Shown here piece after piece: positions 42,255 through 58,258 of a DNA stretch of 64,000 nt. The notes beneath the pieces were generated by a model that was not told where the DNA came from, ran no database searches, and saw nothing but the letters and a program-made list of their open reading frames with translations. The position numbers and the translations under genes were made by a program. Positions within the stretch are counted from its first letter, which is position 1. Every line of letters starts with the position of its first letter. The stretch comes from Promethearchaeota archaeon (GTDB lineage Archaea; Asgardarchaeota; Lokiarchaeia; Sigyniarchaeales; SOKP01), in the NCBI GenBank assembly GCA_048938025.1, contig JBHLMP010000007.1, forward strand, positions 19,881-83,880, given 5' to 3'.

Positions 42255-44384
42255 TCAAACTGAAAAAGATCTTTTTATCCTTTCTAAAGATAAATTTTTA
42301 TAAGAAACCTTTTCCATCTGATTTAATATTTTATCATTTTGATTCAATTCCTTATAGAAATTATTTATTGCGGAGAATATAGAATTTAACTCATTATTCT
42401 GGTAAGTTTTAAAGTTATGTAAATTAAATCGCGGTAAAATATATTTGAATTGAATATTTGGAATATGATCCTTACTATAAAGTAACTCATTTAATAAGTT
42501 GAACCGGATATTAGATTTTGAGTAGATCTCTTTAAAGTATAATATATTAACTAAAATGTTGGTTAATTTTTTATAAAATTTTAAATTTGTATTAATTTCT
42601 GGGGAAAATTTATCTTTAAATTGATTTAATTCTGAATTTTTGAATATTTTTAATTCAATAGAATTTAAATCATATTGTAATTGGGAAAGAATTTGATTAA
42701 TCTTCCCTAAATAAGATAATGATAAAGGAATTTCTTTGGGTAAAGGTAATCTCCTAATAAAACTCCCGTTAAATCTTAAATATCCACCTGACATGTGTAG
42801 AGAACTAAATAAAGATTTGAAAGATAAATTTATTGTATTTGAATTCATAATTGCTAGTAAACTGAATAACTGATCAGTTGAAAAAGAAGGGATAGATAAA
42901 GAATACAATCCTGTAATATTTGTATATAAACCGGGATCATAAACCCAAGTGAGATCTTTAGCAATTTCTCTAAAGATTAATTTTTCAGTTATGAGAATGT
43001 TCCAGATATTTTCAAAACGGGGAATAAATTTGAAGTATGAGATTTTTAAATCTTTTTTGGCAATTCTGATATGTTTATCAAACTTAATGTGATATTTTCC
43101 TACATTTCCAGTTCCAATTAATAAGAGATCATTGTCTGTTTCTTTCATTTCACAAGTATTATCAAAATATTTGGAATAATTTAAAAATCCAAATGGCCTA
43201 TACATAATTTTTAAATCATCAATCACTATAGCCATTGGTTTAAAATTATCATATAGATAATTTAATAAATTTATTTTACCGAATATTGGAATTGCTTTAG
43301 CAGGAAGGCTTTTTATTGAAAATTGAGGCAAAATTTTTGAATCACTGAGATTATTTTTATGCATATCCAGCAAACTGTCGAATTTTTTAATTAAAACTGA
43401 ATTATCATTACTAGGCTTCTTTTTTAGAAAAGAAATTATGATTGGATACGCCGATATCTTTTTGAAGATAGGTAATGAAGAAATATTGACTATTTCCTTA
43501 AGTGTAGTATTATTTACGAGTATTTCTCTAATTTTAATTCCATAATCGGCTGATAAGAATTTGTTTGTAGTCAAAAAAGAAAGGCAACCTACATTTTGTT
43601 TTAATAATTCTAAAGATTTCTCTATAAAAACTATAGAAATATCAAATAATCGATAAGCTGATTTGAATTTCTTAATTAATTTCCTCTTATAATTACTATT
43701 TTTTACTTTTTTATTTTCAATATAGGGTGGGTTTCCAATAATTATATCAAATTGATTTGAATTATATTCAAAAAGAAAATCTAAATTATAGATATTTAAT
43801 TTGAGATTAAAGCCATCAATAATTTTATCTAAATTCTCATACTTTAAATTTTCAATATTTATTTTATTAGAAGTGAAATTGGTTATATTCTTAGAAAAAA
43901 GCCATAAAACTAAGCTCAATTTTGAGATAGTATAAGCAGATTTTTCAATTTCGATTCCAAAAAGATGTTTCTCAATTATTTCTCTTCTTAAATCAAAATT
44001 TTTCTTTTCTGGATTAAGAATTTTATAAATATCATACAGTTTGTCTGCAGCAGAAACTAGAAATCTTCCAGAACCACATGCAGGATCCAAAATTTTTATG
44101 TTTTTAATTCTCTCTCTTAATTCTTTCTTTAAATTTTGATTTTTATTTAAAATATAATTCAAAGATTCAAGATTAAATCCATTTTGGATTAAATTTTTAG
44201 TATTTATCGATTCTTCAAAAAATATTCTTAGAACATTAGATACAATATAATCAACAACTTGGTTTGGTGTGTAAATTATTCCAAGATTCCGATTAACCTC
44301 TTTTCCAAAAATTTTATTATGTTCAAATGATTGAATTAGTCTTCCTGCAAATGATAAAAATTTTTGAATTGGCTGTTTTTGCAT
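42255..44384 (-). CDS. N6-adenine DNA methyltransferase (TaqI/Eco57I-like, gamma class), apparently orphan
   Basis: YTP, ILDPACGSGRFL, IIGNPPY, C-terminal TRD-like region. Confidence 0.88.
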   Translation of the reverse strand: MQKQPIQKFLSFAGRLIQSFEHNKIFGKEVNRNLGIIYTPNQVVDYIVSNVLRIFFEESINTKNLIQNGFNLESLNYILNKNQNLKKELRERIKNIKILDPACGSGRFLVSAADKLYDIYKILNPEKKNFDLRREIIEKHLFGIEIEKSAYTISKLSLVLWLFSKNITNFTSNKINIENLKYENLDKIIDGFNLKLNIYNLDFLFEYNSNQFDIIIGNPPYIENKKVKNSNYKRKLIKKFKSAYRLFDISIVFIEKSLELLKQNVGCLSFLTTNKFLSADYGIKIREILVNNTTLKEIVNISSLPIFKKISAYPIIISFLKKKPSNDNSVLIKKFDSLLDMHKNNLSDSKILPQFSIKSLPAKAIPIFGKINLLNYLYDNFKPMAIVIDDLKIMYRPFGFLNYSKYFDNTCEMKETDNDLLLIGTGNVGKYHIKFDKHIRIAKKDLKISYFKFIPRFENIWNILITEKLIFREIAKDLTWVYDPGLYTNITGLYSLSIPSFSTDQLFSLLAIMNSNTINLSFKSLFSSLHMSGGYLRFNGSFIRRLPLPKEIPLSLSYLGKINQILSQLQYDLNSIELKIFKNSELNQFKDKFSPEINTNLKFYKKLTNILVNILYFKEIYSKSNIRFNLLNELLYSKDHIPNIQFKYILPRFNLHNFKTYQNNELNSIFSAINNFYKELNQNDKILNQMEKVSYKNLSLERIKRSFSV

Positions 44385-46468: not shown

Positions 46469-47347
46469 CTAATTTTTATAAAAAGATGTAATTATCTTAT
46501 TTACATCACTTTCAACCTTATATTTCTTTTGAAAGTAATTACATATGTTTCTAATATCCCTTTCCAAAACTGAGGCTGCATTTGGATGATCACTAAGAAT
46601 CCACTGTAACCAATCTATGATTAGGATATTTCCTTCCTCATCTAATACAATATTAAATTCTCCTAAATCTCCATGGATCAAATTAGCTTTTTTATAAATT
46701 ATTTCCATTTGTTTTATGATTTCATAAAAAATTTTTTCAGGGTTTTTAATACTTTTATAATAAACTAACTCTTTACCCCTTAAATAAGACATCACAACAA
46801 TATGTCTATTATATCCTATTGGTTTAGGAGTATTTAAATTAAGCTTATGTATCATTTTTAAAGCTTCAAATTCTTTTTTAGCAGCAAGTCTATTTATATA
46901 TAACCAAGAAAGATGGCTTCTTTCACCTATTAGATCCCTAAAACGCTTAATACTTTTAAAACTCGTTCTACCCATTCGATATATTTTTAATGCATATATA
47001 TTTGCATTATCATCCATACAACTGTATACGTCTGATTCTTTTCCTTTTCCTATAAGAGGTCCTAATTGACTAATAATATTTTTTTCTACTAAAGTATGTA
47101 GAGCTAATAGATCATAAGATATTGAATTGAGTGTATATCCTATTTCATATTTTGAGGAATCTCTGATAATTAAATCAAGTTTATGAACTTTATTCAAGCG
47201 AAATAGCGTCTCTTCCAACTTATATCTGGAATAAAATCTAATATTGTTAATAGTTACATATTCAGATCTTTTCATCCCAATTTCAATTGCCATTAATATT
47301 CTTAAATCCTCTTTTTCAAGGTCAGGGAGAAGTTTTGCTGCTTCCAC
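46469..47347 (-). CDS. rio2: RIO2 atypical kinase
   Basis: N-terminal wHTH (D.RIL.AIE.GM...EYV), GKGKESDVY, GRTSF, IHGDL.EFN, IIDW.Q. Confidence 0.93.
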   Translation of the reverse strand: MEAAKLLPDLEKEDLRILMAIEIGMKRSEYVTINNIRFYSRYKLEETLFRLNKVHKLDLIIRDSSKYEIGYTLNSISYDLLALHTLVEKNIISQLGPLIGKGKESDVYSCMDDNANIYALKIYRMGRTSFKSIKRFRDLIGERSHLSWLYINRLAAKKEFEALKMIHKLNLNTPKPIGYNRHIVVMSYLRGKELVYYKSIKNPEKIFYEIIKQMEIIYKKANLIHGDLGEFNIVLDEEGNILIIDWLQWILSDHPNAASVLERDIRNICNYFQKKYKVESDVNKIITSFYKN

Positions 47348-47501
47348 ATACTAAATTTCTTTTTTTAATTTAAAAGATTTATTAATTTGCAGTAATAAAT
47401 TGCTTATCTTCTATATTTTGTAATGATTAAATGATTTTTTATACAAAAAAATGGATTTAGAAAAATATAAAAAAAAAGACAAAATAGTAATAATTTTTTA
47501 C

Positions 47502-47570
47502 CAGATTCCTCATATTCAATTATTTAATAAAAATTCTCCATGTAAAAGTCAATCTTAAGGAGTGAATCTG
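47502..47570. ncRNA. Candidate structured element related to 1420-1487
   Basis: CAGATTC/GAATCTG closing stem; CTCC/GGAG inner stem whose loop contains AAAAGTCAATCTT. Confidence 0.3.
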
Positions 47571-47665
47571 CCATAGCTAAAACAGATCGATATAACAATA
47601 AAAAGATTAAAAAAATTAGAAATAAATTAAGAAAATATTGGAGTTGGAGTTATTTCACATTTATT

Positions 47666-48448
47666 CTAAAATATGAATTTTCCATAAGTCTTTAGAAAAG
47701 TTATGAATTTATATAAATTTGGTATTTCAAACAAGAAAATTGCGGTTAAGTTTGAAATTAAAAATATTAAAGCATCTTTTATTCGTATTAAATAATTAGT
47801 TAAGGTGGATCCTTCTTGAAATTTAAATAAGAATATCCCTTGATTTAAAAATAATAATATTCCTATACAAATGATAAAGCTAGAAATGTTAAAAACTATA
47901 ACTTGATGTTCTTGTTCAAAAATTCCAATTGTTACATTGATGCCTAGGATTATTAAGGTAATGATTACAATAGTTCTAGAGAAAATTATCATATAATCAT
48001 ATATACTTGCGCTTACTATACAAATATTACCTGAAATATGCCAAAATAGGGAAGAATATAAATTTAATATTAAAAAAATAGGTAAAATAACTGAGATCAT
48101 AGAAAAAGTGAAAAATAATTTTATGGTTATTAATCTACTAAAAAGTAGTTTACCTTTCTCTTCTCCTTTTCTTACAGATTCCAACATTGTACTAATTTTA
48201 ATTTGGATTTCTTCTGGAATTTCCTTTTTAAGCACTTTTAATTGAAAAGTTGAATCGGGATAATTTGAGATCAAATTTTCAACCGAATTATAACCATTCT
48301 TGAATTTTCGTTTAGAACCCTTTGGACCCTTCCATATATAGATAATCTTGTTTTCATCATCTAAAAATGCGCAAATATCGTGTAATAATAAATTTGTTTC
48401 TTCAATCCATGCATATTTATCTTCATAAAACACATAGCTTCTAAGCAT
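47666..48448 (-). CDS. Gelsolin-like domain fused to four transmembrane helices
   Basis: LLLHDICAFLDDENKIIYIWKGPKGSKRKF in residues 20-50; four hydrophobic segments from about residue 109. Confidence 0.7.
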   Translation of the reverse strand: MLRSYVFYEDKYAWIEETNLLLHDICAFLDDENKIIYIWKGPKGSKRKFKNGYNSVENLISNYPDSTFQLKVLKKEIPEEIQIKISTMLESVRKGEEKGKLLFSRLITIKLFFTFSMISVILPIFLILNLYSSLFWHISGNICIVSASIYDYMIIFSRTIVIITLIILGINVTIGIFEQEHQVIVFNISSFIICIGILLFLNQGIFLFKFQEGSTLTNYLIRIKDALIFLISNLTAIFLFEIPNLYKFITFLKTYGKFIF

Positions 48449-48555: not shown

Positions 48556-49458
48556 TTATTCTTGGCTTTCAATTCTTTTCTTTATTTCTTGCCACATATC
48601 ATTGATGTAAGTTTTATAAATTTCAATTTCTTTGACACTTAGAGTTTTAAATCTTTTCTGTACGCTTAGATATTCCTCTATAGGTTTTCTTTTAGAAGGA
48701 TCTAGATACTTACTGCTTGGTTTTGATAAAATAAATTTGCCGTTAATCACTTCATATAAAGGCCAGAATCCAGTCTGTACGGCAAGTCTACCTATCAATA
48801 TTGTATCCTTAGGTTCATATCCCCAACCAGGTGGGCAGGGTGAAAGGATATGGAAATATTTCGTTCCAAATATATCTCTTGCCTTTTTAAATTTTTCAAA
48901 TAAATCAAGTGGATAAGATACAATACCCGTAGTCACGTAAGGAATACCATGAGCTTCTAAAATCTTTGGCATATTTTTCTTATGCCCTAATTTACCTTCA
49001 GGTGTAGTTGTAGTTCTTACTCCTAATGGTGTAGAGCCACTTCGTTGAACACCTGTATTCATATAAGCTTCATTATCATAACATGCAAAGATAAAATTTG
49101 TACCTCTTTCAGCAGCACCACTTAATGCCTGTATTCCTATATCAGTTGTCCCACCATCTCCTGCGAATGCAAGTACACAAATTTCTTCATCTAATCCCTT
49201 ATCTTCTAAGGAAGCTCTTATTCCAGAGGCAGAAGCTCCTGTTGTTGCAAAAGGTGTGTGATAAACAGATATTTTTGTTGAGCAAAAGCCTTGCATCCCA
49301 TGTAGTACTGTTAGACAAGAGGCGGGTACTGTTATTATAGTTTTAGAACCTAGTGCTTTTAGAGCAATTCTGTAAATTAGAGCCATCCCACATCCTGCAC
49401 AAGCTCGTGTACCGGGATAAATATATTCTTCTTCAGGAAGATCCATAACATTTACCAT
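48556..49458 (-). CDS. porB: Pyruvate/2-oxoacid:ferredoxin oxidoreductase beta subunit
   Basis: ACAGC, GDGGT.DIG.Q.LSG..ER, YDNEAYMNTG, SPCPPGW. Confidence 0.92.
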   Translation of the reverse strand: MVNVMDLPEEEYIYPGTRACAGCGMALIYRIALKALGSKTIITVPASCLTVLHGMQGFCSTKISVYHTPFATTGASASGIRASLEDKGLDEEICVLAFAGDGGTTDIGIQALSGAAERGTNFIFACYDNEAYMNTGVQRSGSTPLGVRTTTTPEGKLGHKKNMPKILEAHGIPYVTTGIVSYPLDLFEKFKKARDIFGTKYFHILSPCPPGWGYEPKDTILIGRLAVQTGFWPLYEVINGKFILSKPSSKYLDPSKRKPIEEYLSVQKRFKTLSVKEIEIYKTYINDMWQEIKKRIESQE

Positions 49459-49464
49459 TTTTTC

Positions 49465-50757
49465 TTATCCTCCTTTGAAATACGTTGATTCATCATAATC
49501 TTTTAATTCTTCCAAATTTAAACCTAAAAAGTCTGTTTTATTGGTAAATCCTCCTTCTTTAAATGCATCTAAAGCTTTATAAACACCAGATATAATATGT
49601 TCTGTTTTAACATCTCTTCCACCTAAACCAACAATAAATCCTTTAATATTTGGTCGATTTTTTAATCCATAAAGTGCAGCTTTTAATTCATAAGATAAAA
49701 CACCTTCATAACCATAACCTATATCTCTGTCAAATACAATGATATTTTCTTTATCTTTAAAGAATTCTCTCAATTCTTCAGCAGGATAGGGTCTAAATAA
49801 TTTTAAACTCACCAATCCAACCTTGAGTCCTTCATTTCTAAGTTTTTCAATTGCAATCCTTCCTTGAGATGCTACTGAACCTATTGCAAAGATTATAGTA
49901 TTTGCATCGTTTGTATCAACTGTTTTATAAATTCCATTTCCATAAGATCTGCCAAATTTCCTGAAATATTCATCATGAACTTCTTTAATTATATTAATTG
50001 AATTTTCTAAAGCTTTTTGCAAAGTATATCGATATTCATAATATCCTGGCGCGGTTCCTTCCGCTCGTTTGATAATATTAGGAGTTGTAACGGGATCAAT
50101 CCCCTTTACATTTGATATATCCGATAAATTGATATGATGTTTAAGAGGTGGTAAGAACCCATCAATATCTTCTTGATTCTCTAATTTAACAGGCATCATT
50201 GTATGACTAAGTATATATCCATCATATGCAACTATAGCGGGTAGAAAAACACGGGGATCCTCAGCAATTTTAAAAGCTTGGAGATTGGTGTCATAGATTT
50301 CTTGATTATTTTCGCATATAAATTGAATCCATCCAACATCTCTTATCGTTATAAAATCTTGATGATCAGTCCAAACACTCCAAGGGGCACCTAAGGATCT
50401 AGTTGCTAAATTAATAATTATAGGTAATCTATTTCCTGAAGCCCAGGGTAGCATTTCATACATAAATTCTAACCCATGAGCAGACGTTGCTGTGCCAACT
50501 CTAGAGCCTGTAGCAGAAGCAGCACAACATACTGCAAGTGCGGAATGCTCAGACTCGACTTTTACAAACCTAGCTTTCAATTTTCCTTCTGAAACAAATT
50601 CAGCGATTTTTTCTACTACAGGACTTTGAGGTGTTATTGGATATGCTGAGATAACGCCAACTTTTGCTTGTCTAAAAGCATGCGCAGCGGCATGATTACC
50701 TGTTAAAATCATTAAGTTTTCATCAGTAAGTTCTTCTTTCTCATTAGATACAGTCAC
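49465..50757 (-). CDS. porA: Pyruvate/2-oxoacid:ferredoxin oxidoreductase alpha subunit
   Basis: GN.A.A, AYPITP, VESEHSA, DG..LSH, FRP.P, GLGGRD. Confidence 0.92.
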   Translation of the reverse strand: MTVSNEKEELTDENLMILTGNHAAAHAFRQAKVGVISAYPITPQSPVVEKIAEFVSEGKLKARFVKVESEHSALAVCCAASATGSRVGTATSAHGLEFMYEMLPWASGNRLPIIINLATRSLGAPWSVWTDHQDFITIRDVGWIQFICENNQEIYDTNLQAFKIAEDPRVFLPAIVAYDGYILSHTMMPVKLENQEDIDGFLPPLKHHINLSDISNVKGIDPVTTPNIIKRAEGTAPGYYEYRYTLQKALENSINIIKEVHDEYFRKFGRSYGNGIYKTVDTNDANTIIFAIGSVASQGRIAIEKLRNEGLKVGLVSLKLFRPYPAEELREFFKDKENIIVFDRDIGYGYEGVLSYELKAALYGLKNRPNIKGFIVGLGGRDVKTEHIISGVYKALDAFKEGGFTNKTDFLGLNLEELKDYDESTYFKGG

Positions 50758-51330: not shown

Positions 51331-54300
51331 TTGAGGTTAACGTTGGACACTTCACCCGATACGCTTAAATTAATTACTGAAATGGAAAAATATAAGAGTA
51401 TAATTGATAACATAAAAGAATGCTATTTCGAAGTTGATCTAAAAGGTAATTTTACATTTTTCAATGACTCTGTATTGAAACTTTTGGATTATTCGCAAGA
51501 TGAACTTTTAGGATTAAATTATAAGTATCTTGCAGATGAAGAAACCAGAGGTAAAGTCTTTAAAGGATTTAATATGGTTTATGAAACTGGTAAGCCACTA
51601 ACAGATTTTCAATACCAATTTAGAAACAAAAAAGGTGAGAAAATAGTTGGTGAAACATCTGTATATTTAAAATATGATGCGAAAGGAAATAAAATTGGTT
51701 TCTGTGGTTTATTTCGCGATATAACTAAAAGAAAGGAAGAAGAGCAAATATTTAAAGAAGAATTAGAAAATAAAGTACGTTTAAGGACTAAAGAATTAAG
51801 AGAATCCGAAGAAAAGTATAGTAATCTTTTCCACCATTCTAATGATGCTATTTTTTTACATGATTTGAATGGAACGATTATAGATGTTAATCAAAGAGTA
51901 TTGGAACAATTCGGATATACTAGATCAGAGATTCTAAAACTTAAAATTCCAGACCTTCATCCAATAGAGGAACATGAATCATCTAAGAAAGCATTCGAAG
52001 AAGTTTCAAATAAAGGAGTTGTAAGATTTGAAATTAACTTTAAAAAGAAAAGCGGAGAAAAATTTTTAGCTGAAGTGTCATCCAGTTTATTTGATATAGG
52101 CGGAAAAAAAGTTATTCAAGGTATTGTAAGAGATATAACTGAACGTGTTTTAACAGAACAAAAATTAAGAATATCGGAAGAAAAGTATCGACTTATTACT
52201 GAAAATGCTAATGATATGATAGCTATTATTAATAAGCAATTTAAATTAGAATTTACTAATGAAAATACAGTTAAAAAGAAATTAGGATATTCAAATGATG
52301 AGATATTAGATAAATATATATTGGATTTTGTACATCCTGATGATATTCAAAAAGCAATTAAATCATATAAAGTAGGAGAAAAGAAAGGTGAAAATGTAGC
52401 AGATTTACGATTCAAACATAAGGATGGTAATTATATATGGTTAGAAATTACAGGAAAAAGATTTGTAACTCCAGATGGAGAATATAAAGGTATCCTAATT
52501 TCAAGGATCATTACTGAAAAAAAAGAAATAGAAAACAAATTAAAAGAATCAGAGGAAAAGTATAGATTGATTTCAGAAAATGCTAATGATTTAATTAGTA
52601 TTACAGATGATAAGATGAATTTAGAATATGTTAATGAACAAGTTCATAATAAAATAATGGGATATCTTAAGGAAGATCTTATAGGAATAAATGGTATAGA
52701 ACTAATTCATCCTGAAGATCGTGAAAATGTATTACAGGTATTTAAATTAGTCTTAATATCAGGAGAAGGATATGTAGAAGCAAGAATTAAACATAAAGAT
52801 GGTCATTATTTATGGACTGGAACCAATGGTTCAGTATATATTGACAGAAATGGGAAGCCAAAGGTTCTTTTAATTACGAGAGACATAACCGAACGTAAGT
52901 TGGCTGAGCAGAAATTAAAGGATTCTGAAGAAAAACACCGAAACATGATTAATAATCTTGATTTAGGATTTTATCAGTTAAGTTGGGATGGAATATTATT
53001 AAATCATAATCCAGCTTTTAGCAAAATATTAGGGTTCCATCCATCTGAAAATTTAATCGATAAGAACATCCATGATTTTTGGCAAAATCCTGAAGAACGG
53101 ATAACATATTTAGATGAATTAAAAAAGTTAGGCTATGTTAAGAATTATTTAGTTCATGCAAAAAAGAAAAACGATGAAAAAATAGTTTTACACCTCAATT
53201 CTCATATTTTGGAAAAAACTAAAGGGAGTCCCAATATAATTCAAGGATTAATAACAGATATTACAGAAAAATTCAAATTAGAACAGAAATTAAAGGAATC
53301 CGAGCAAAGATATCGAAATCTTTTTGAATCTATGCCTTTTTCTATAGCACTTCTTGATCAAAAAGGAAGGGTGATTTATACTAATCCTGCTTCTGAAAAA
53401 TTATTTGGATATAGTATGGAAGATTTACTTGGTGAAGAGTTTAGAAATCTTTCAATCATTCATCCTCAATATTTACCTCTAATGTTAAAAAGATTTAAAA
53501 AGACCCTTAAAGGTGAAAATCTATCGCCAATAGAGATTCAAATATATAAGAAAAATGGTAATTTAACTTGGATAAACTATCAGACATCATTAGTAAATCT
53601 AGGTAATGAATCATTGATGCAAGTTATTATAAATGATATTTCAGAGCAAAAAAAAGCTGAACTTCTTATCAAAGAAGAAGTGAAAAAGTTAAAAGAATTA
53701 GATCAAATCAGGAAAGATCTTATTTCTAGAGTCTCCCACGAGTTAAAAACACCACTCGTATCTGTGTGCGGAGGATCTGAACTTATTTTGGAAATATATA
53801 AAGGAAATTTGGATTCAGATGTTTTAGAGTTATTAGAACTCATAGAAAAGGGTGGAAAGCGCTTAAAATATTTGGTTGATAATCTACTTGATATAACTCG
53901 AATAGAATATAATAAACTCAAACTAAATAAAGAATTAAGTGATTTGAGTAAAATTATTAAAGATTGCGTTAAAGAATTACAATATTTAGCCAGACAAAGA
54001 GAATTAAATTTGGATTTAAAATTAGTAGATCACTTATATTTAGAGATAGATAAAATTAGATTAGAACAGGTAATTATTAATTTATTATCAAATGCCATAA
54101 AAAATACCCCACCTTTGGGAAATATAACAATAAAATTACAAAAAAAGGAAGATTGGGCAGAAATCTCAGTTAAAGATACAGGGATTGGATTAACGAAAGG
54201 AGAAATGGATATCCTATTCACAAGATTTGGCAAAATTGAACGATATGGAGAAGGGTTAGAATATATAGATATTCAAGGTTCTGGATTAGGGTTATATATC

Positions 54301-54399
54301 TCTAAAGAAATTGTTGATTTACATGGCGGCCAGATAAGGGCAGAATCAGCAGGAAGGAATAAGGGAAGTACATTTATTGTGAAATTACCAATTAATTAA
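51331..54399 (+). CDS. Soluble histidine kinase with six PAS domains
   Basis: Six PAS/PAC units with SEEKYR-type linkers; H-box SHELKTPL, N-box NLLSNAIK, DTGIG, GSGLGL. Confidence 0.93.
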   Translation: MRLTLDTSPDTLKLITEMEKYKSIIDNIKECYFEVDLKGNFTFFNDSVLKLLDYSQDELLGLNYKYLADEETRGKVFKGFNMVYETGKPLTDFQYQFRNKKGEKIVGETSVYLKYDAKGNKIGFCGLFRDITKRKEEEQIFKEELENKVRLRTKELRESEEKYSNLFHHSNDAIFLHDLNGTIIDVNQRVLEQFGYTRSEILKLKIPDLHPIEEHESSKKAFEEVSNKGVVRFEINFKKKSGEKFLAEVSSSLFDIGGKKVIQGIVRDITERVLTEQKLRISEEKYRLITENANDMIAIINKQFKLEFTNENTVKKKLGYSNDEILDKYILDFVHPDDIQKAIKSYKVGEKKGENVADLRFKHKDGNYIWLEITGKRFVTPDGEYKGILISRIITEKKEIENKLKESEEKYRLISENANDLISITDDKMNLEYVNEQVHNKIMGYLKEDLIGINGIELIHPEDRENVLQVFKLVLISGEGYVEARIKHKDGHYLWTGTNGSVYIDRNGKPKVLLITRDITERKLAEQKLKDSEEKHRNMINNLDLGFYQLSWDGILLNHNPAFSKILGFHPSENLIDKNIHDFWQNPEERITYLDELKKLGYVKNYLVHAKKKNDEKIVLHLNSHILEKTKGSPNIIQGLITDITEKFKLEQKLKESEQRYRNLFESMPFSIALLDQKGRVIYTNPASEKLFGYSMEDLLGEEFRNLSIIHPQYLPLMLKRFKKTLKGENLSPIEIQIYKKNGNLTWINYQTSLVNLGNESLMQVIINDISEQKKAELLIKEEVKKLKELDQIRKDLISRVSHELKTPLVSVCGGSELILEIYKGNLDSDVLELLELIEKGGKRLKYLVDNLLDITRIEYNKLKLNKELSDLSKIIKDCVKELQYLARQRELNLDLKLVDHLYLEIDKIRLEQVIINLLSNAIKNTPPLGNITIKLQKKEDWAEISVKDTGIGLTKGEMDILFTRFGKIERYGEGLEYIDIQGSGLGLYISKEIVDLHGGQIRAESAGRNKGSTFIVKLPIN

Positions 54400-54452
54400 T
54401 TTATAATAAATAATTAAAAATTTTTTTATTTAAGTACAATTTATAGAAAAAA

Positions 54453-56708
54453 ATGAAGTATAACAAGGAAGAAATAAGAGAAAAGTTTAAAGATCTATTT
54501 GAAAATTCTTTAGATTTAATTTATGTTAATGATCTAAAAGGTAATATTCTTGATGCTAATGATATTGCTTTAAAGTCTCTTGGATATAAAAAGGAAGAAA
54601 TGTTAGACATTTCTTTCATAAATTTAGTTGATCAAGAGAATTTGCTTAAAGCAATAAAGGTAACTAAAGAAATAGTGGAAAAAGGAAGGCAAACAGAACG
54701 TAGTGAATATAAACTTAAAAAAAAGGATGGGAATTTTATTTATATTGAGACATATGCAATTCCTTTAAAAAAGAATGATAAAATTTATGCGATTTTAGGA
54801 ATTGGAACTGATATTACTGAACGTAAAATTGCTGAGCAAAAGCTAAAAGAATCCAAAGAAAAGTATCGACATCTATTTGAAAATTCTCCTGATTTTGTAG
54901 GGTTAGTAGATTTAAAAGGAAATTTGATAGACTGTAATAATCGAGTTGAAGATTTTCTTTCAATCCATAAGAAAGAAGATATTATTGGAAAAAATTTCAA
55001 AGAAATTTTCTCAATTAATGAAAAAAACAAGTATGCTATACCTCTATTTGAAGAAATTTATAAAAATATACTTAAAGGTGAAATTCCAGAACCTATTGAA
55101 TTTAAATTATATAGAACAATAGGGAGATTTTTATGGCTAAATCTCCGAGGTTCTTTAATAGATATTGAAGGAAAAAAATTAATTCAATTTATAATTCAAA
55201 ATATTACAGAGAAAAAAGAAGCAGTCCAAAAATTAAAAGATTCCGAAGAAAAGTACAAGAACTTAGTAGAAAATGGTCAAGAAGGTGTTTGGGCAGTGGA
55301 TGAAAATGATAATACAATCTTTGTAAATCCAAAAATATGTGAAATGCTTGGATATAATAAAAATGAAATGATGGGTAAAAATTTAGATTTATTTTTAGAG
55401 GACTCAATGATGGAATTGATCAATAGCTACCGAAAACGTAGAGAAAAAGGTTTGAAAGATACTTATGAACTTGAATTCTTAAAAAAGGATGGAACTATAA
55501 TACAGACAAGTGTAAAAGCTGCTCCAATCTTAAAAGAAAATGGAGAGTTTAAAGGTTCATTTGCATATATTAATGATATTTCAAATAAAAAAATAGCGGA
55601 AAAAAAATTAAGAGAATCTGAAAAAAAATTCAGATCAATTTTTGAAGCTATACCAGATCTCTATTTTCTCGTTGATAATAATACAACAATCTTAGATTAT
55701 AAAGGGAAAGAGGAAGATTTATATTTACCTCCAGATCTATTTCTTGGAAAAAAATTAACAGATGTTATACCTATAGAAATAAAAGATTTATCACTAAATG
55801 CTGTAAAGAACACTATAAAAACACAAAAACCACAATTGATGGAATATGCTCTTCCTATAAAAGATATAACTCGATATTTTGAAGCTCGTCATCTTTTTTT
55901 CTCTGAAGAACGTGTTGGTATATTTATACGGGAAATTACAGATCGGAAAAAAGCTGAATTTCTCATCAAAGAAGAAGTTAATAAATTGAAAGAATTAGAT
56001 CAAATTAGAAAAGATCTTATTTCTAGAGTCTCGCATGAGTTAAAAACACCACTTGTTTCTGTTATCGGCGGATCCGAACTTCTTCTTAATAATTATAAAG
56101 AAAAAATGAAGGATGAAGAATTAGAGCTATTAGAGATTATTCAAAAAGGAGGGAAAAGATTAAAGCACCTTATTGAAAATCTACTTGATATTACTCGAAT
56201 AGAATATAATAAATTTAATTTAGAAAAAAAAGAAGACGATCTAAGCGAAATTATTAAAGATATATCAAATGAAATGAAGTATTTACTAAAGGAACGTAAT
56301 ATCATATTAAATATAGAACAACCTGAGAGCTTGCGCTTATATATAGATAGGATTAGAATTGAACAAGTTATAACAAACTTATTGTTAAATGCTATCAAAA
56401 ATACTCCAGCTATGGGAAATATAACGCTAAAATTACAAAAAAATAAAGATTGGGCAGAAATTTTGGTAAGTGATACTGGAGTAGGGTTAACTAAAGAAGA
56501 AATGAATATTATTTTTACTAGATTTGGAAAGATAGAAAGATATGGACAAGGTTTGGAATATATTGATATTCAAGGTTCTGGACTAGGATTATTTATATCA
56601 AAAGAAATTGTTGATTTACATGGGGGTTATATTAGAGCAGAGTCAGAAGGTAGAAATAAAGGGAGTACTTTTATAGTAAAATTACCAATTCAAAATAGGT
56701 ATAAATGA
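54453..56708 (+). CDS. Soluble histidine kinase with four PAS domains
   Basis: Four PAS units plus the same transmitter motifs. Confidence 0.93.
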   Translation: MKYNKEEIREKFKDLFENSLDLIYVNDLKGNILDANDIALKSLGYKKEEMLDISFINLVDQENLLKAIKVTKEIVEKGRQTERSEYKLKKKDGNFIYIETYAIPLKKNDKIYAILGIGTDITERKIAEQKLKESKEKYRHLFENSPDFVGLVDLKGNLIDCNNRVEDFLSIHKKEDIIGKNFKEIFSINEKNKYAIPLFEEIYKNILKGEIPEPIEFKLYRTIGRFLWLNLRGSLIDIEGKKLIQFIIQNITEKKEAVQKLKDSEEKYKNLVENGQEGVWAVDENDNTIFVNPKICEMLGYNKNEMMGKNLDLFLEDSMMELINSYRKRREKGLKDTYELEFLKKDGTIIQTSVKAAPILKENGEFKGSFAYINDISNKKIAEKKLRESEKKFRSIFEAIPDLYFLVDNNTTILDYKGKEEDLYLPPDLFLGKKLTDVIPIEIKDLSLNAVKNTIKTQKPQLMEYALPIKDITRYFEARHLFFSEERVGIFIREITDRKKAEFLIKEEVNKLKELDQIRKDLISRVSHELKTPLVSVIGGSELLLNNYKEKMKDEELELLEIIQKGGKRLKHLIENLLDITRIEYNKFNLEKKEDDLSEIIKDISNEMKYLLKERNIILNIEQPESLRLYIDRIRIEQVITNLLLNAIKNTPAMGNITLKLQKNKDWAEILVSDTGVGLTKEEMNIIFTRFGKIERYGQGLEYIDIQGSGLGLFISKEIVDLHGGYIRAESEGRNKGSTFIVKLPIQNRYK

Positions 56709-56746
56709 ATTTTATATTTATTATAGAACTGATTTGAAGTTTAAAA

Positions 56747-58258
56747 ATGAAATATAATAGAGAGAATATCGAAGAGAAATACCAAGATTTATTTGAATAT
56801 TCTCTAGATATGATTTATGTTAATGATCTAAAAGGAAATTTTCTTGATGCTAATGATATTGCATTAAAGAAGCTAGGATTTAACCGAGAAGATATTCCTG
56901 ATCTTTCATTTATAGATTTAATTGACAAGGAGGATTTAATAAAGGCTTTAAAAGTTGTAAAGGAAATAAAAGAAACTGGAAAACAATCGAAACATCGACA
57001 ATATAAACTCAAAACTAAAGAATGTGGTTTCATCTATGTAGAAACCTTTGCTATACCTTTAAGAAAAAAGGGTAAGATTTACGCCGTTTTAGGGATTGCA
57101 AATGATATTACAGAGAGTAAGTTAGGAGAACAAAAACTAAAGGATTCAGAAGAGAAGTACCGAATTCTTTTTGAAGATTCACCATTTTCTATCGTTTTAA
57201 TTGACTCAAAAGGAAATATTATTGATTGTAATCCAGCAACAGAAGAACTATTAGGATATAAGAAAGAAGAAGTAATACGTAAAAAATTTATGAATCTTGA
57301 AATATTCCCAACTGATTTTCTACCTGTTATTCTTGATCTTTTTACAAGATTTTTAAAAGGAGAAGAATTGCATCGAATGGATGTAAAAATGTATAAGAAA
57401 GATGGAGGTTTGATCTGGGCAAATCTGCAAGCTTCTTTAGTAAAATTAGATGGTGAAACATTTGTACAAGCAATATTTCATGATATCACGAATCAAAAAA
57501 AAGCTAACTTGCTTATTAAAGAAGAAATTAAAAAATTAAAAGAATTAGATCAAATTAGAAAAGATCTTATTTCCAGAGTTTCCCATGAGTTAAAAACTCC
57601 TCTGGTATCTATATATGGAGGATCTGAACTTCTGTTAAGAGTTTTTAAAGATCGATTAGATATAGATAAGATAGAATTAATAGAATTAATTCAAAAAGGA
57701 GGCAAAAGGTTAAAACATTTAGTTAATAATTTACTTGATATTACTCGAATAGAATATGATAAATTCAAATTAGAAAAGGAAAAATATAATTTAAGTGAAA
57801 TAATTAAAGAAATCTCAAAAGAAATGAGATATTTAATAAAAGAAAGGAATCTTGTATTAAATTTAGAATTATCAGATGAATTATATTTGGAATTAGATAG
57901 AATTAGAATTGAACAAGTTCTTACAAACTTATTGTTAAATGCTATAAAAAATACTCCACCTTGGGGAAATATAAAGATAAAATTACAAAAAAAGGAAGAT
58001 TGGGCAGAATTTTCAGTTAAAGATACAGGAGTTGGATTAACTAAAGAAGAAATGAATCTTATTTTCACTAGATTTGGAAAGATAGAAAGATATGGAGAAG
58101 GGTTAGAATATATAGATATTCAAGGTTCTGGACTTGGATTATTTATATCAAAAGAGATAGTTGATTTACATAAGGGTTATATTAGGGCAGAATCAGAAGG
58201 TAGAAATAAAGGAAGCACCTTTATAGTACAACTACCAATTCAAAATAGACATAAATGA
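56747..58258 (+). CDS. Soluble histidine kinase with two PAS domains
   Basis: Two PAS units plus the same transmitter motifs. Confidence 0.93.
   Translation: MKYNRENIEEKYQDLFEYSLDMIYVNDLKGNFLDANDIALKKLGFNREDIPDLSFIDLIDKEDLIKALKVVKEIKETGKQSKHRQYKLKTKECGFIYVETFAIPLRKKGKIYAVLGIANDITESKLGEQKLKDSEEKYRILFEDSPFSIVLIDSKGNIIDCNPATEELLGYKKEEVIRKKFMNLEIFPTDFLPVILDLFTRFLKGEELHRMDVKMYKKDGGLIWANLQASLVKLDGETFVQAIFHDITNQKKANLLIKEEIKKLKELDQIRKDLISRVSHELKTPLVSIYGGSELLLRVFKDRLDIDKIELIELIQKGGKRLKHLVNNLLDITRIEYDKFKLEKEKYNLSEIIKEISKEMRYLIKERNLVLNLELSDELYLELDRIRIEQVLTNLLLNAIKNTPPWGNIKIKLQKKEDWAEFSVKDTGVGLTKEEMNLIFTRFGKIERYGEGLEYIDIQGSGLGLFISKEIVDLHKGYIRAESEGRNKGSTFIVQLPIQNRHK

Follow-up and report, generated by a model that had tools for sequence, protein, structure and literature searches.

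Cultured Asgard archaea move and reshape themselves through actin-filled protrusions (PMC13716822), and three gelsolin architectures have been described for the group (PMC7444086), namely ProGel, 1DGelX (in which domain X is a predicted coiled coil), and 2DGel. ProGel was crystallized on actin at the site used by gelsolin domain G1 and by cofilin, it is devoid of the type I and type II Ca2+ sites, and it bundles filamentous actin (F-actin) at high concentration, according to the same paper. Here we describe a gene at 47666..48448 (minus strand) of a 64,000-nucleotide stretch of a Promethearchaeota genome (contig JBHLMP010000007.1, positions 19,881 to 83,880; this whole stretch is hereafter called the window). 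Its 260-residue product consists of an N-terminal gelsolin-homology (GH) head, a linker helix, and a domain of four transmembrane (TM) helices; new is the presence of a gelsolin/cofilin-superfamily domain within an integral membrane protein.

The open reading frame (ORF) at 47666..48448 has an ATG start, encodes 260 residues followed by a stop codon, and lies in AT-rich DNA (GC content of 0.23-0.36 along the window). A word-indexed protein search returned 52 homologues at an expectation value (E) of ≤0.01 among 1728 candidates, 47 of them spanning 100% of the query, with identities of 39-97%; those with names are annotated as "hypothetical protein" and derive from metagenome-assembled genomes labeled Promethearchaeota, Hodarchaeota, or Odinarchaeota. 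An exhaustive search of cluster representatives yielded 70 proteins at E ≤0.001 (44 at ≤1e-10 and 25 at ≤1e-30), among them full-length relatives of 270-321 residues with 23-31% identity, and 27 distant relatives keep the full-length architecture at identities down to 17-28%. The cluster names of 10 distant relatives were looked up and read "hypothetical protein" only. For three gapless orthologues, the ratios of nonsynonymous to synonymous substitution rates (dN/dS, Nei-Gojobori method) over the whole protein were 0.24, 0.21, and 0.23; where dS could be computed, the head gave 0.16-0.17 and the membrane part 0.21-0.26, the ratio for the head not being computable against the orthologue L009 with its zero synonymous changes. 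Ratios of ∼0.2 in both halves identify the ORF as a protein-coding gene whose head and membrane part are both under purifying selection.

Residues 1 to ∼78 are a GH domain homologous to ProGel and gelsolin. We modeled the whole protein with AlphaFold2 (AF2) from a family alignment of 29 sequences (A1) and obtained a mean predicted local distance difference test score (pLDDT) of 88.3 and a predicted template modeling score (pTM) of 0.60, the latter value leaving the mutual orientation of the head and the membrane domain undefined. Residues 1-100 adopt a β-β-β-β-α-β-α arrangement in this model, with the central β-sheet sandwiched by a long and a second helix as is typical of the gelsolin/cofilin core. 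The GH core (residues 1-78; 48215..48448, minus strand), delimited by AF2, Foldseek, VIA, and invariant columns, is made of strands 2-8, 13-16, 25-30, and 35-40, a long helix at 46-61, and strand 69-72. Residues 79-105 (48134..48214, minus strand) were assigned from AF2 and from counts of lysine plus arginine (K+R) and comprise the second head helix (79-100) together with a basic flank, ending in a short break ahead of the first TM helix; pLDDT drops to 63 in the block 91-100. D30, W39, and G41 are invariant in all 29 family sequences, with W39 sometimes replaced by Y or F in distant paralogues; the head thus carries the D...W.G pattern, which fits the "DWG motif" given in the ProGel paper for gelsolin, ProGel, and 2DGel (PMC7444086).

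The original prediction had assigned the N-terminus to the gelsolin fold from a core strand motif, which is indeed present as NLLLHDICAFLDDENKIIYIWKGPKGSKRKF at residues 19-49, and family profile, Foldseek, and VIA agree in bearing out that assignment. When a profile of the 29 family members was compared with PDB sequences, 27 of the 30 matches at E ≤10 belonged to the gelsolin family, in the order villin (1.2e-4), ProGel chain 7c2f_B (4.1e-4), and horse gelsolin (7.8e-4), then CapG, adseverin, and Asgard 2DGels; the other three were two RbcX chains and one de novo designed protein. Foldseek comparison of the AF2 model with the PDB also placed 7c2f_B at the top (E 6.3e-5, TMt 0.68, root-mean-square deviation (rmsd) 3.2 over 87 columns, 21% identity) as the sole match at E ≤0.001, and all of the rows listed to rank 50 were gelsolin-family chains. 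VIA-align matched 7c2f_D with Z 10.1 and an rmsd of 2.7 Å (84 aligned of 88), and a repeat run on the head returned adseverin 3fg6_H (Z 10.1), gelsolin 6jeh_B (Z 10.1), and 7c2f_B (Z 10.0); overall, the best head matches had Z 10.0-10.1 and an rmsd of 2.7-3.0 Å over 83-90 aligned residues. Alignment of family A1 by hhalign to a ProGel-like ORF of another Asgard genome (L105) gave a probability of 92% (E 6.5e-7, 35% identity, 48 columns). The gelsolin-family match exceeds chance, as judged from the 27 of 30 profile matches and from the Foldseek rows.

The four hydrophobic segments of the original prediction (109-131, 153-177, 183-201, and 226-243) lie near four AF2 helices (106-135, 147-177, 181-201, and 223-259), and Kyte-Doolittle windows of 19 residues reach at least 1.6 over 103-138, 148-179, 180-211, and 225-245. 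No N-terminal window rises above 0.51, so the sequence has no signal-peptide-like segment, again as had been claimed. TM helices 1 (residues 106-135; 48044..48133), 2 (147-177; 47918..48010), and 3 (181-201; 47846..47908), all encoded on the minus strand like the features that follow, are placed by hydropathy and by two AF2 models, and the head helix 79-100 continues, past a short low-confidence break, into the first of them. Loop 1 (136-146; 48011..48043) forms a β-hairpin with strands 137-139 and 142-146 and, from its low K+R, is predicted to be outside. Loop 2 (178-182; 47903..47917) is short, acidic, and assigned to the cytoplasm, with E178 in 29, E180 in 26, and Q182 in 28 of the 29 sequences. 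Loop 3 (202-222; 47783..47845), predicted to face outward, contains GIFLFxFQEGST, the most conserved motif of the family, in which G204, I205, L207, F208, F210, Q211, S214, and T215 are each kept in at least 27 of 29 sequences, and its strand 218-222 pairs with the hairpin of loop 1. TM helix 4 and a basic amphipathic C-terminal helix, assigned to the cytoplasm from AF2 and K+R, make up residues 223-259 (47672..47782). Modeling of residues 101-260 alone, on an alignment of 29 in-frame partial translations (A4), reproduced the helices and strands of the whole model with a pLDDT of 91.1 and a pTM of 0.83.

The distribution of charged residues indicates the orientation of the protein. Averaged over 29 sequences, K+R amounts to 3.97 in the flank preceding TM helix 1 (residues 90-106) and to 3.48 at the C-terminus (246-260), compared to 0.62 in loop 1 (132-150) and 1.38 in loop 3, whereas the cytoplasmic loop 2 has a mean K+R of 0.14 and a mean aspartate plus glutamate of 2.0. 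By the positive-inside rule, this bias predicts an N-in/C-in topology in which both the head and the C-terminus are cytoplasmic and the small β-sheet is exposed outside. The cytoplasmic placement of the gelsolin-fold head proposed in the original prediction is therefore supported at the sequence level.

No known family could be assigned to the membrane domain. Foldseek comparison of the TM-only model gave no match at E ≤0.001; the best was cornichon (E 0.3, rmsd 8.2 Å), and the best rows were cornichon, TARP, and connexin chains with E of 0.3 or worse and an rmsd of 6-12 Å. A wide VIA search with the whole model was led by designed helical bundles at Z 16.1, a range flagged as common for such shapes. 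As both programs yielded only generic or non-significant rows, we describe this part of the protein simply as a four-TM bundle without an assigned family. A claudin-like membrane fold, an idea that came from the outer-loop β-sheet, was supported by neither the wide VIA search nor the TM-only Foldseek comparison. In the ESM Atlas, residues 100-260 had a sole match, an unnamed Promethearchaeota cluster at 0.84, which is probably the protein's own family.

This membrane-built gelsolin/cofilin-superfamily domain is restricted to one Asgard order. A profile that includes the distant members (A3), applied to 400 genomes of the phylum, matched 185 of them at E ≤1e-5. Strong matches were confined to the window's own order, where they occur in 135 of 153 genomes (116 of 134, 14 of 14, 1 of 1, and 4 of 4 for families f1 to f4, respectively). 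Outside this order (families f10, f20, f27, and f31), most of the listed matches were weak, at ∼1e-6 to 1e-7, although one genome of another family (G083, f16) reached 2e-19. For the weak matches, four of five inspected genomes had open frames of 93-104 residues (one of 219) that aligned with profile positions 22-72 only, and L105 (104 residues), the one short out-of-order frame that was read, is ProGel-like. Some genera have two to four paralogues; the window's genome has one copy.

An ORF in G083 (L103:646-1782, minus strand) contains the back two-thirds of the head, from YIWNGPKSS onward, and the linker helix, joined to an EamA-like multi-TM protein; a second EamA-like gene follows immediately. 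Strands one to four of the head are not encoded by the frame upstream, so this ORF may have been left behind by recombination instead of being a functional fusion.

A search of species-representative genomes with the pattern [QF]GI[FY]LFxFQ located 69 loci. Those named to the phylum are all labeled Asgard except L055, and the others are labeled "uncultured archaeon". L055 (DATKTW010000096.1) is labeled "Candidatus Nanopelagicaceae bacterium" and bears the gene together with the whole Asgard-type block (oxidoreductase, RIO2 kinase, and methyltransferase), which suggests that the record is mis-binned or mislabeled. In the window, the gene is followed by that of a RIO2-type kinase (46469..47347, minus strand; PF01163 1.6e-51, PF09202 1.4e-19) and preceded by those of the beta (48556-49458, minus strand; PF02775) and alpha (49465-50757, minus strand; PF01855 and PF17147) subunits of a 2-oxoacid:ferredoxin oxidoreductase. 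The same order recurs across the 69 loci for RIO2 (68), the beta (67) and alpha (66) subunits, and a methyltransferase (64). In all 68 loci with RIO2, this gene is on the same strand as the gelsolin-membrane gene, and the gap between them is ≤60 nucleotides in 39 of the 68 and ∼2 kilobases in three; the 318 nucleotides in the window (47348-47665) hence reflect a change of local gene spacing in its lineage. Since synteny extends over all nine genes of the block throughout the order, we read it as conserved gene order and not as a functional clue. Two further features of the region were recorded. Just upstream of the oxidoreductase genes, 51331-58258 (plus strand) holds a row of three genes for cytoplasmic histidine kinases rich in PAS domains (1022, 751, and 503 residues); homologues of the first two occur in 52 of the 69 related loci. 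At 42255-44384 (minus strand) lies the gene for a 709-residue protein with Eco57I/MmeI-type DNA methyltransferase domains; homologues occur in 46 of the 69 loci.

The genome that contains the window also encodes actin and soluble GH proteins. Its Lokiactin-type actin gene (L005, G000:C25:3-872, minus strand) is cut by the contig end after 290 residues, over which it is 100% identical to the full Lokiactin of 381 residues in a genome of the same genus (G012, L079:1228-2370), and three further actin-family genes are present. The GH proteins found in the genome include a 2DGel-like protein with the motif TLLKDV, a 102-residue ProGel-like ORF, and four soluble 1DGelX-like (GH-plus-X) proteins of 317, 339, 281, and 246 residues; among all of them, only the 260-residue protein carries TM helices. 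Another weak ProGel-like match (E 5.9e-4) lies in a 74-residue open frame of the same genome at G000:C45:36191-36322 (plus strand).

Some distant paralogues of the membrane protein, encoded in other genomes, possess a C-terminal extension. The pattern [ST][ILV]L[RKQ]D occurs after residue 240 in 11 of 97 full-length members, and before it in none of the 97. The tail-bearing proteins (P0087, P0092, P0095, P0097, P0098, P0101, P0104, P0108, P0111, P0112, and P0115) share ...[LM]R.x[ST][KR]P[ST]IL[RQ]D... with the core [KR]P[ST]IL[RQ]D at residues ∼250-285, a region that is placed in the cytoplasm by the predicted topology. This motif resembles the Asgard WH2-like LKDV motif named in a recent preprint (bioRxiv 10.1101/2025.11.30.690169), as may be seen by comparison with TLLKDV in the genome's own 2DGel-like protein; we regard the resemblance as a lead only. 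A second group of paralogues has a different tail, IS.KEWK..K....

By analogy with ProGel, we consider the most likely function of the protein to be the binding of Lokiactin at the inner membrane face and the tethering of filaments or filament ends there, an assignment to which we give an even chance. In its favor are the fold and homology of the head, the charge bias, the purifying selection, the actin genes of the genome, and the WH2-like tail of the paralogues. ProGel binds actin at the G1/cofilin site, and numerous heads of this type, each held a short helix away from the inner membrane face, would be in a good position to retain filaments or their ends. The cytoplasmic, single, ProGel-type (cofilin-like) GH head would bind Lokiactin at this face, and the ∼22-residue helix would hold it on the four-helix TM bundle, the two outward loops of which form the small, highly conserved β-sheet. 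In this way the membrane would gain an attachment for Lokiactin filaments or their ends. Weak binding by any one head would be offset by the avidity of many copies lying in the same membrane plane.

Several observations weigh against this assignment. ProGel itself interacts only weakly with monomeric actin (G-actin; PMC7444086). The lone protein sequence is marginal in Pfam, where PF25466 (MPK1_gelsolin_C) reaches E 0.084 and 13.5 bits, below its cut-off of 27; PF00626 gave no match to the 260-residue protein at E ≤1; in 35 relatives, PF00626 was sub-threshold for 11 (the best at 20.7 against 21 bits) and without a match for 24, so the family does not reach Pfam membership at the 21-bit cut-off. 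In line with these values, PF00626 searched against the genome at E ≤1 picked up four other places and missed the gene at 47666..48448, and a phmmer search of the PDB with the lone sequence returned 7c2f_B at a marginal E of 0.053. The orientation of the head relative to the membrane domain is, as noted above, left undefined by the model, the window protein is without the paralogue tail motif, and the oxidoreductase and RIO2 kinase neighbors have no cytoskeletal link. Three additional points of this kind, concerning the conservation of the membrane domain, the precedent of Sec23a, and the soluble GH proteins of the genome, also favor the strongest of the alternatives.

According to that alternative, the head has a gelsolin fold that has lost actin binding or never had it and serves as a cytoplasmic regulatory or protein-interaction module, while the real job of the protein lies in the membrane or at the surface, for example as a small channel or transporter subunit, a scaffold, or an anchor for surface proteins. 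Conservation is 56% for residues 1-75 and 52% for residues 106-260, and the strongest motif lies in the outward loop 3; because sequence conservation in the membrane domain, outside loops included, is about as high as in the head, the main function may lie in the membrane. The membrane domain nevertheless matches no channel or transporter family in the Foldseek comparison described above. Sec23a provides a precedent for a gelsolin-like domain that is not known to bind actin (PMC7444086, Fig. 4H legend), but no Sec23/24 chain is among the Foldseek matches listed for our protein. In G083, the partial head and linker precede an EamA-like 10-TM protein, as though one membrane protein could pass the module on to another, yet strands one to four of the head are missing from this fusion, which may be a remnant. 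The soluble GH proteins of the window's genome resemble the family only weakly, hhalign giving probabilities of 8% for the ProGel-like, 10.7% for the 2DGel-like, and 61% for the 1DGelX-like protein; against this, the listed Foldseek rows and the best VIA matches of residues 1-93 are actin-binding gelsolin-family domains, the closest being ProGel. On balance, we consider a head that does not bind actin to be a doubtful, if serious, explanation.

A second alternative, in which the head is outside the cell (N-out) and acts on the cell surface, is very improbable. Some basic residues in loop 3 and the acidic character of loop 2 could be taken in its favor, but most of the basic residues are held by the flank before TM helix 1 and by the C-terminus, and a folded head of ∼100 residues precedes TM helix 1 with neither a signal peptide nor an N-terminal hydrophobic segment. 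The remaining possibility, that the gelsolin motif arose by chance in an AT-rich ORF that is not a gene, as the base composition and the marginal matches of the lone sequence might suggest, has next to no probability and is already contradicted by the 52 homologues, the 70 representative clusters, the 69 loci with the same gene order, the dN/dS of ∼0.2, and the confident models (pLDDT 88.3 and 91.1).

A wider role can be proposed tentatively, and we hold it at distinctly less than even confidence. The protein could be the first integral-membrane member of the gelsolin/cofilin superfamily and a direct Lokiactin-membrane coupler that anchors or caps filaments on the inner side of the membrane, its conserved outside β-sheet might link the cortex to surface proteins or to the substrate in an integrin-like manner, and in the paralogues the WH2-like tail could act together with the head to nucleate actin on the membrane.

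The original prediction knew of no described integral-membrane gelsolin, and none was found in our full-text literature searches, with the limit that the supplements of PMC7444086, PMC9433394, and PMC13716822 (accession lists, architecture figures, and proteome tables) could list members under another label. The word "transmembrane" is absent from PMC13716822, PMC7444086, and PMC9433394, and PMC12962969 mentions gelsolin in its reference list only. The actin regulators described in the available text of a study of crawling motility are soluble gelsolins and profilins (bioRxiv 10.1101/2025.11.30.690169; Nature version PMC13716822), no protein connecting Lokiactin to the membrane is named in the available text of PMC13716822, and the authors state that their co-immunoprecipitation with Lokiactin was biased against membrane proteins (bioRxiv 10.1101/2025.11.30.690169). 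A conserved membrane-embedded protein with a gelsolin fold is a concrete and cheaply testable candidate for the link between actin and membrane. Should the proposal hold, it would show that the coupling of actin regulators to membranes by direct fusion predates eukaryotes; a head that does not bind actin would still make the family a clean case of the gelsolin fold having been recruited to a membrane protein.

Comparison with known systems sets these possibilities in context. Ponticulin of Dictyostelium, itself embedded in the membrane, makes direct contact with actin filaments on the cytoplasmic side. Its likeness to the role proposed here is a functional analogy only, and no relation in sequence or fold is expected. 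Cornichon, the TARP/claudin proteins, and connexins resemble the membrane domain in having four TM helices, both termini on one side of the membrane, and a β element within the loops that face outward, although the structural matches to them are non-significant. The eukaryotic proteins gelsolin, villin, adseverin, and CapG have the domain fold in common with the head and show detectable homology to it in the profile comparison, and VIA aligns the head with gelsolin G2, adseverin, and severin domains at Z 9.3-10.1; these proteins contain three to six tandem domains, are soluble or peripheral, and are regulated by Ca2+, whereas the window protein is an integral membrane protein with a single such domain. 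The Asgard 1DGelX proteins likewise carry a C-terminal part unrelated to gelsolin behind a single GH domain, but that part is the coiled-coil domain X in a protein used as a soluble reagent (PMC7444086) and four hydrophobic helices in the window protein, and the hhalign alignment to the genome's own 1DGelX-like protein covers just 26 columns of the GH core. The closest relative is Thorarchaeota ProGel (PDB 7c2f; Akil et al. 2020, PMC7444086), which like the head is a single gelsolin/cofilin-type domain with the D...W.G positions in common, and which is the best Foldseek and the second-best PDB profile match. Actin binding is established for ProGel and is a candidate property of the window protein. 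ProGel is a soluble, stand-alone domain of ∼90-105 residues, whereas in the 260-residue window protein the domain runs via a helix into four TM helices.

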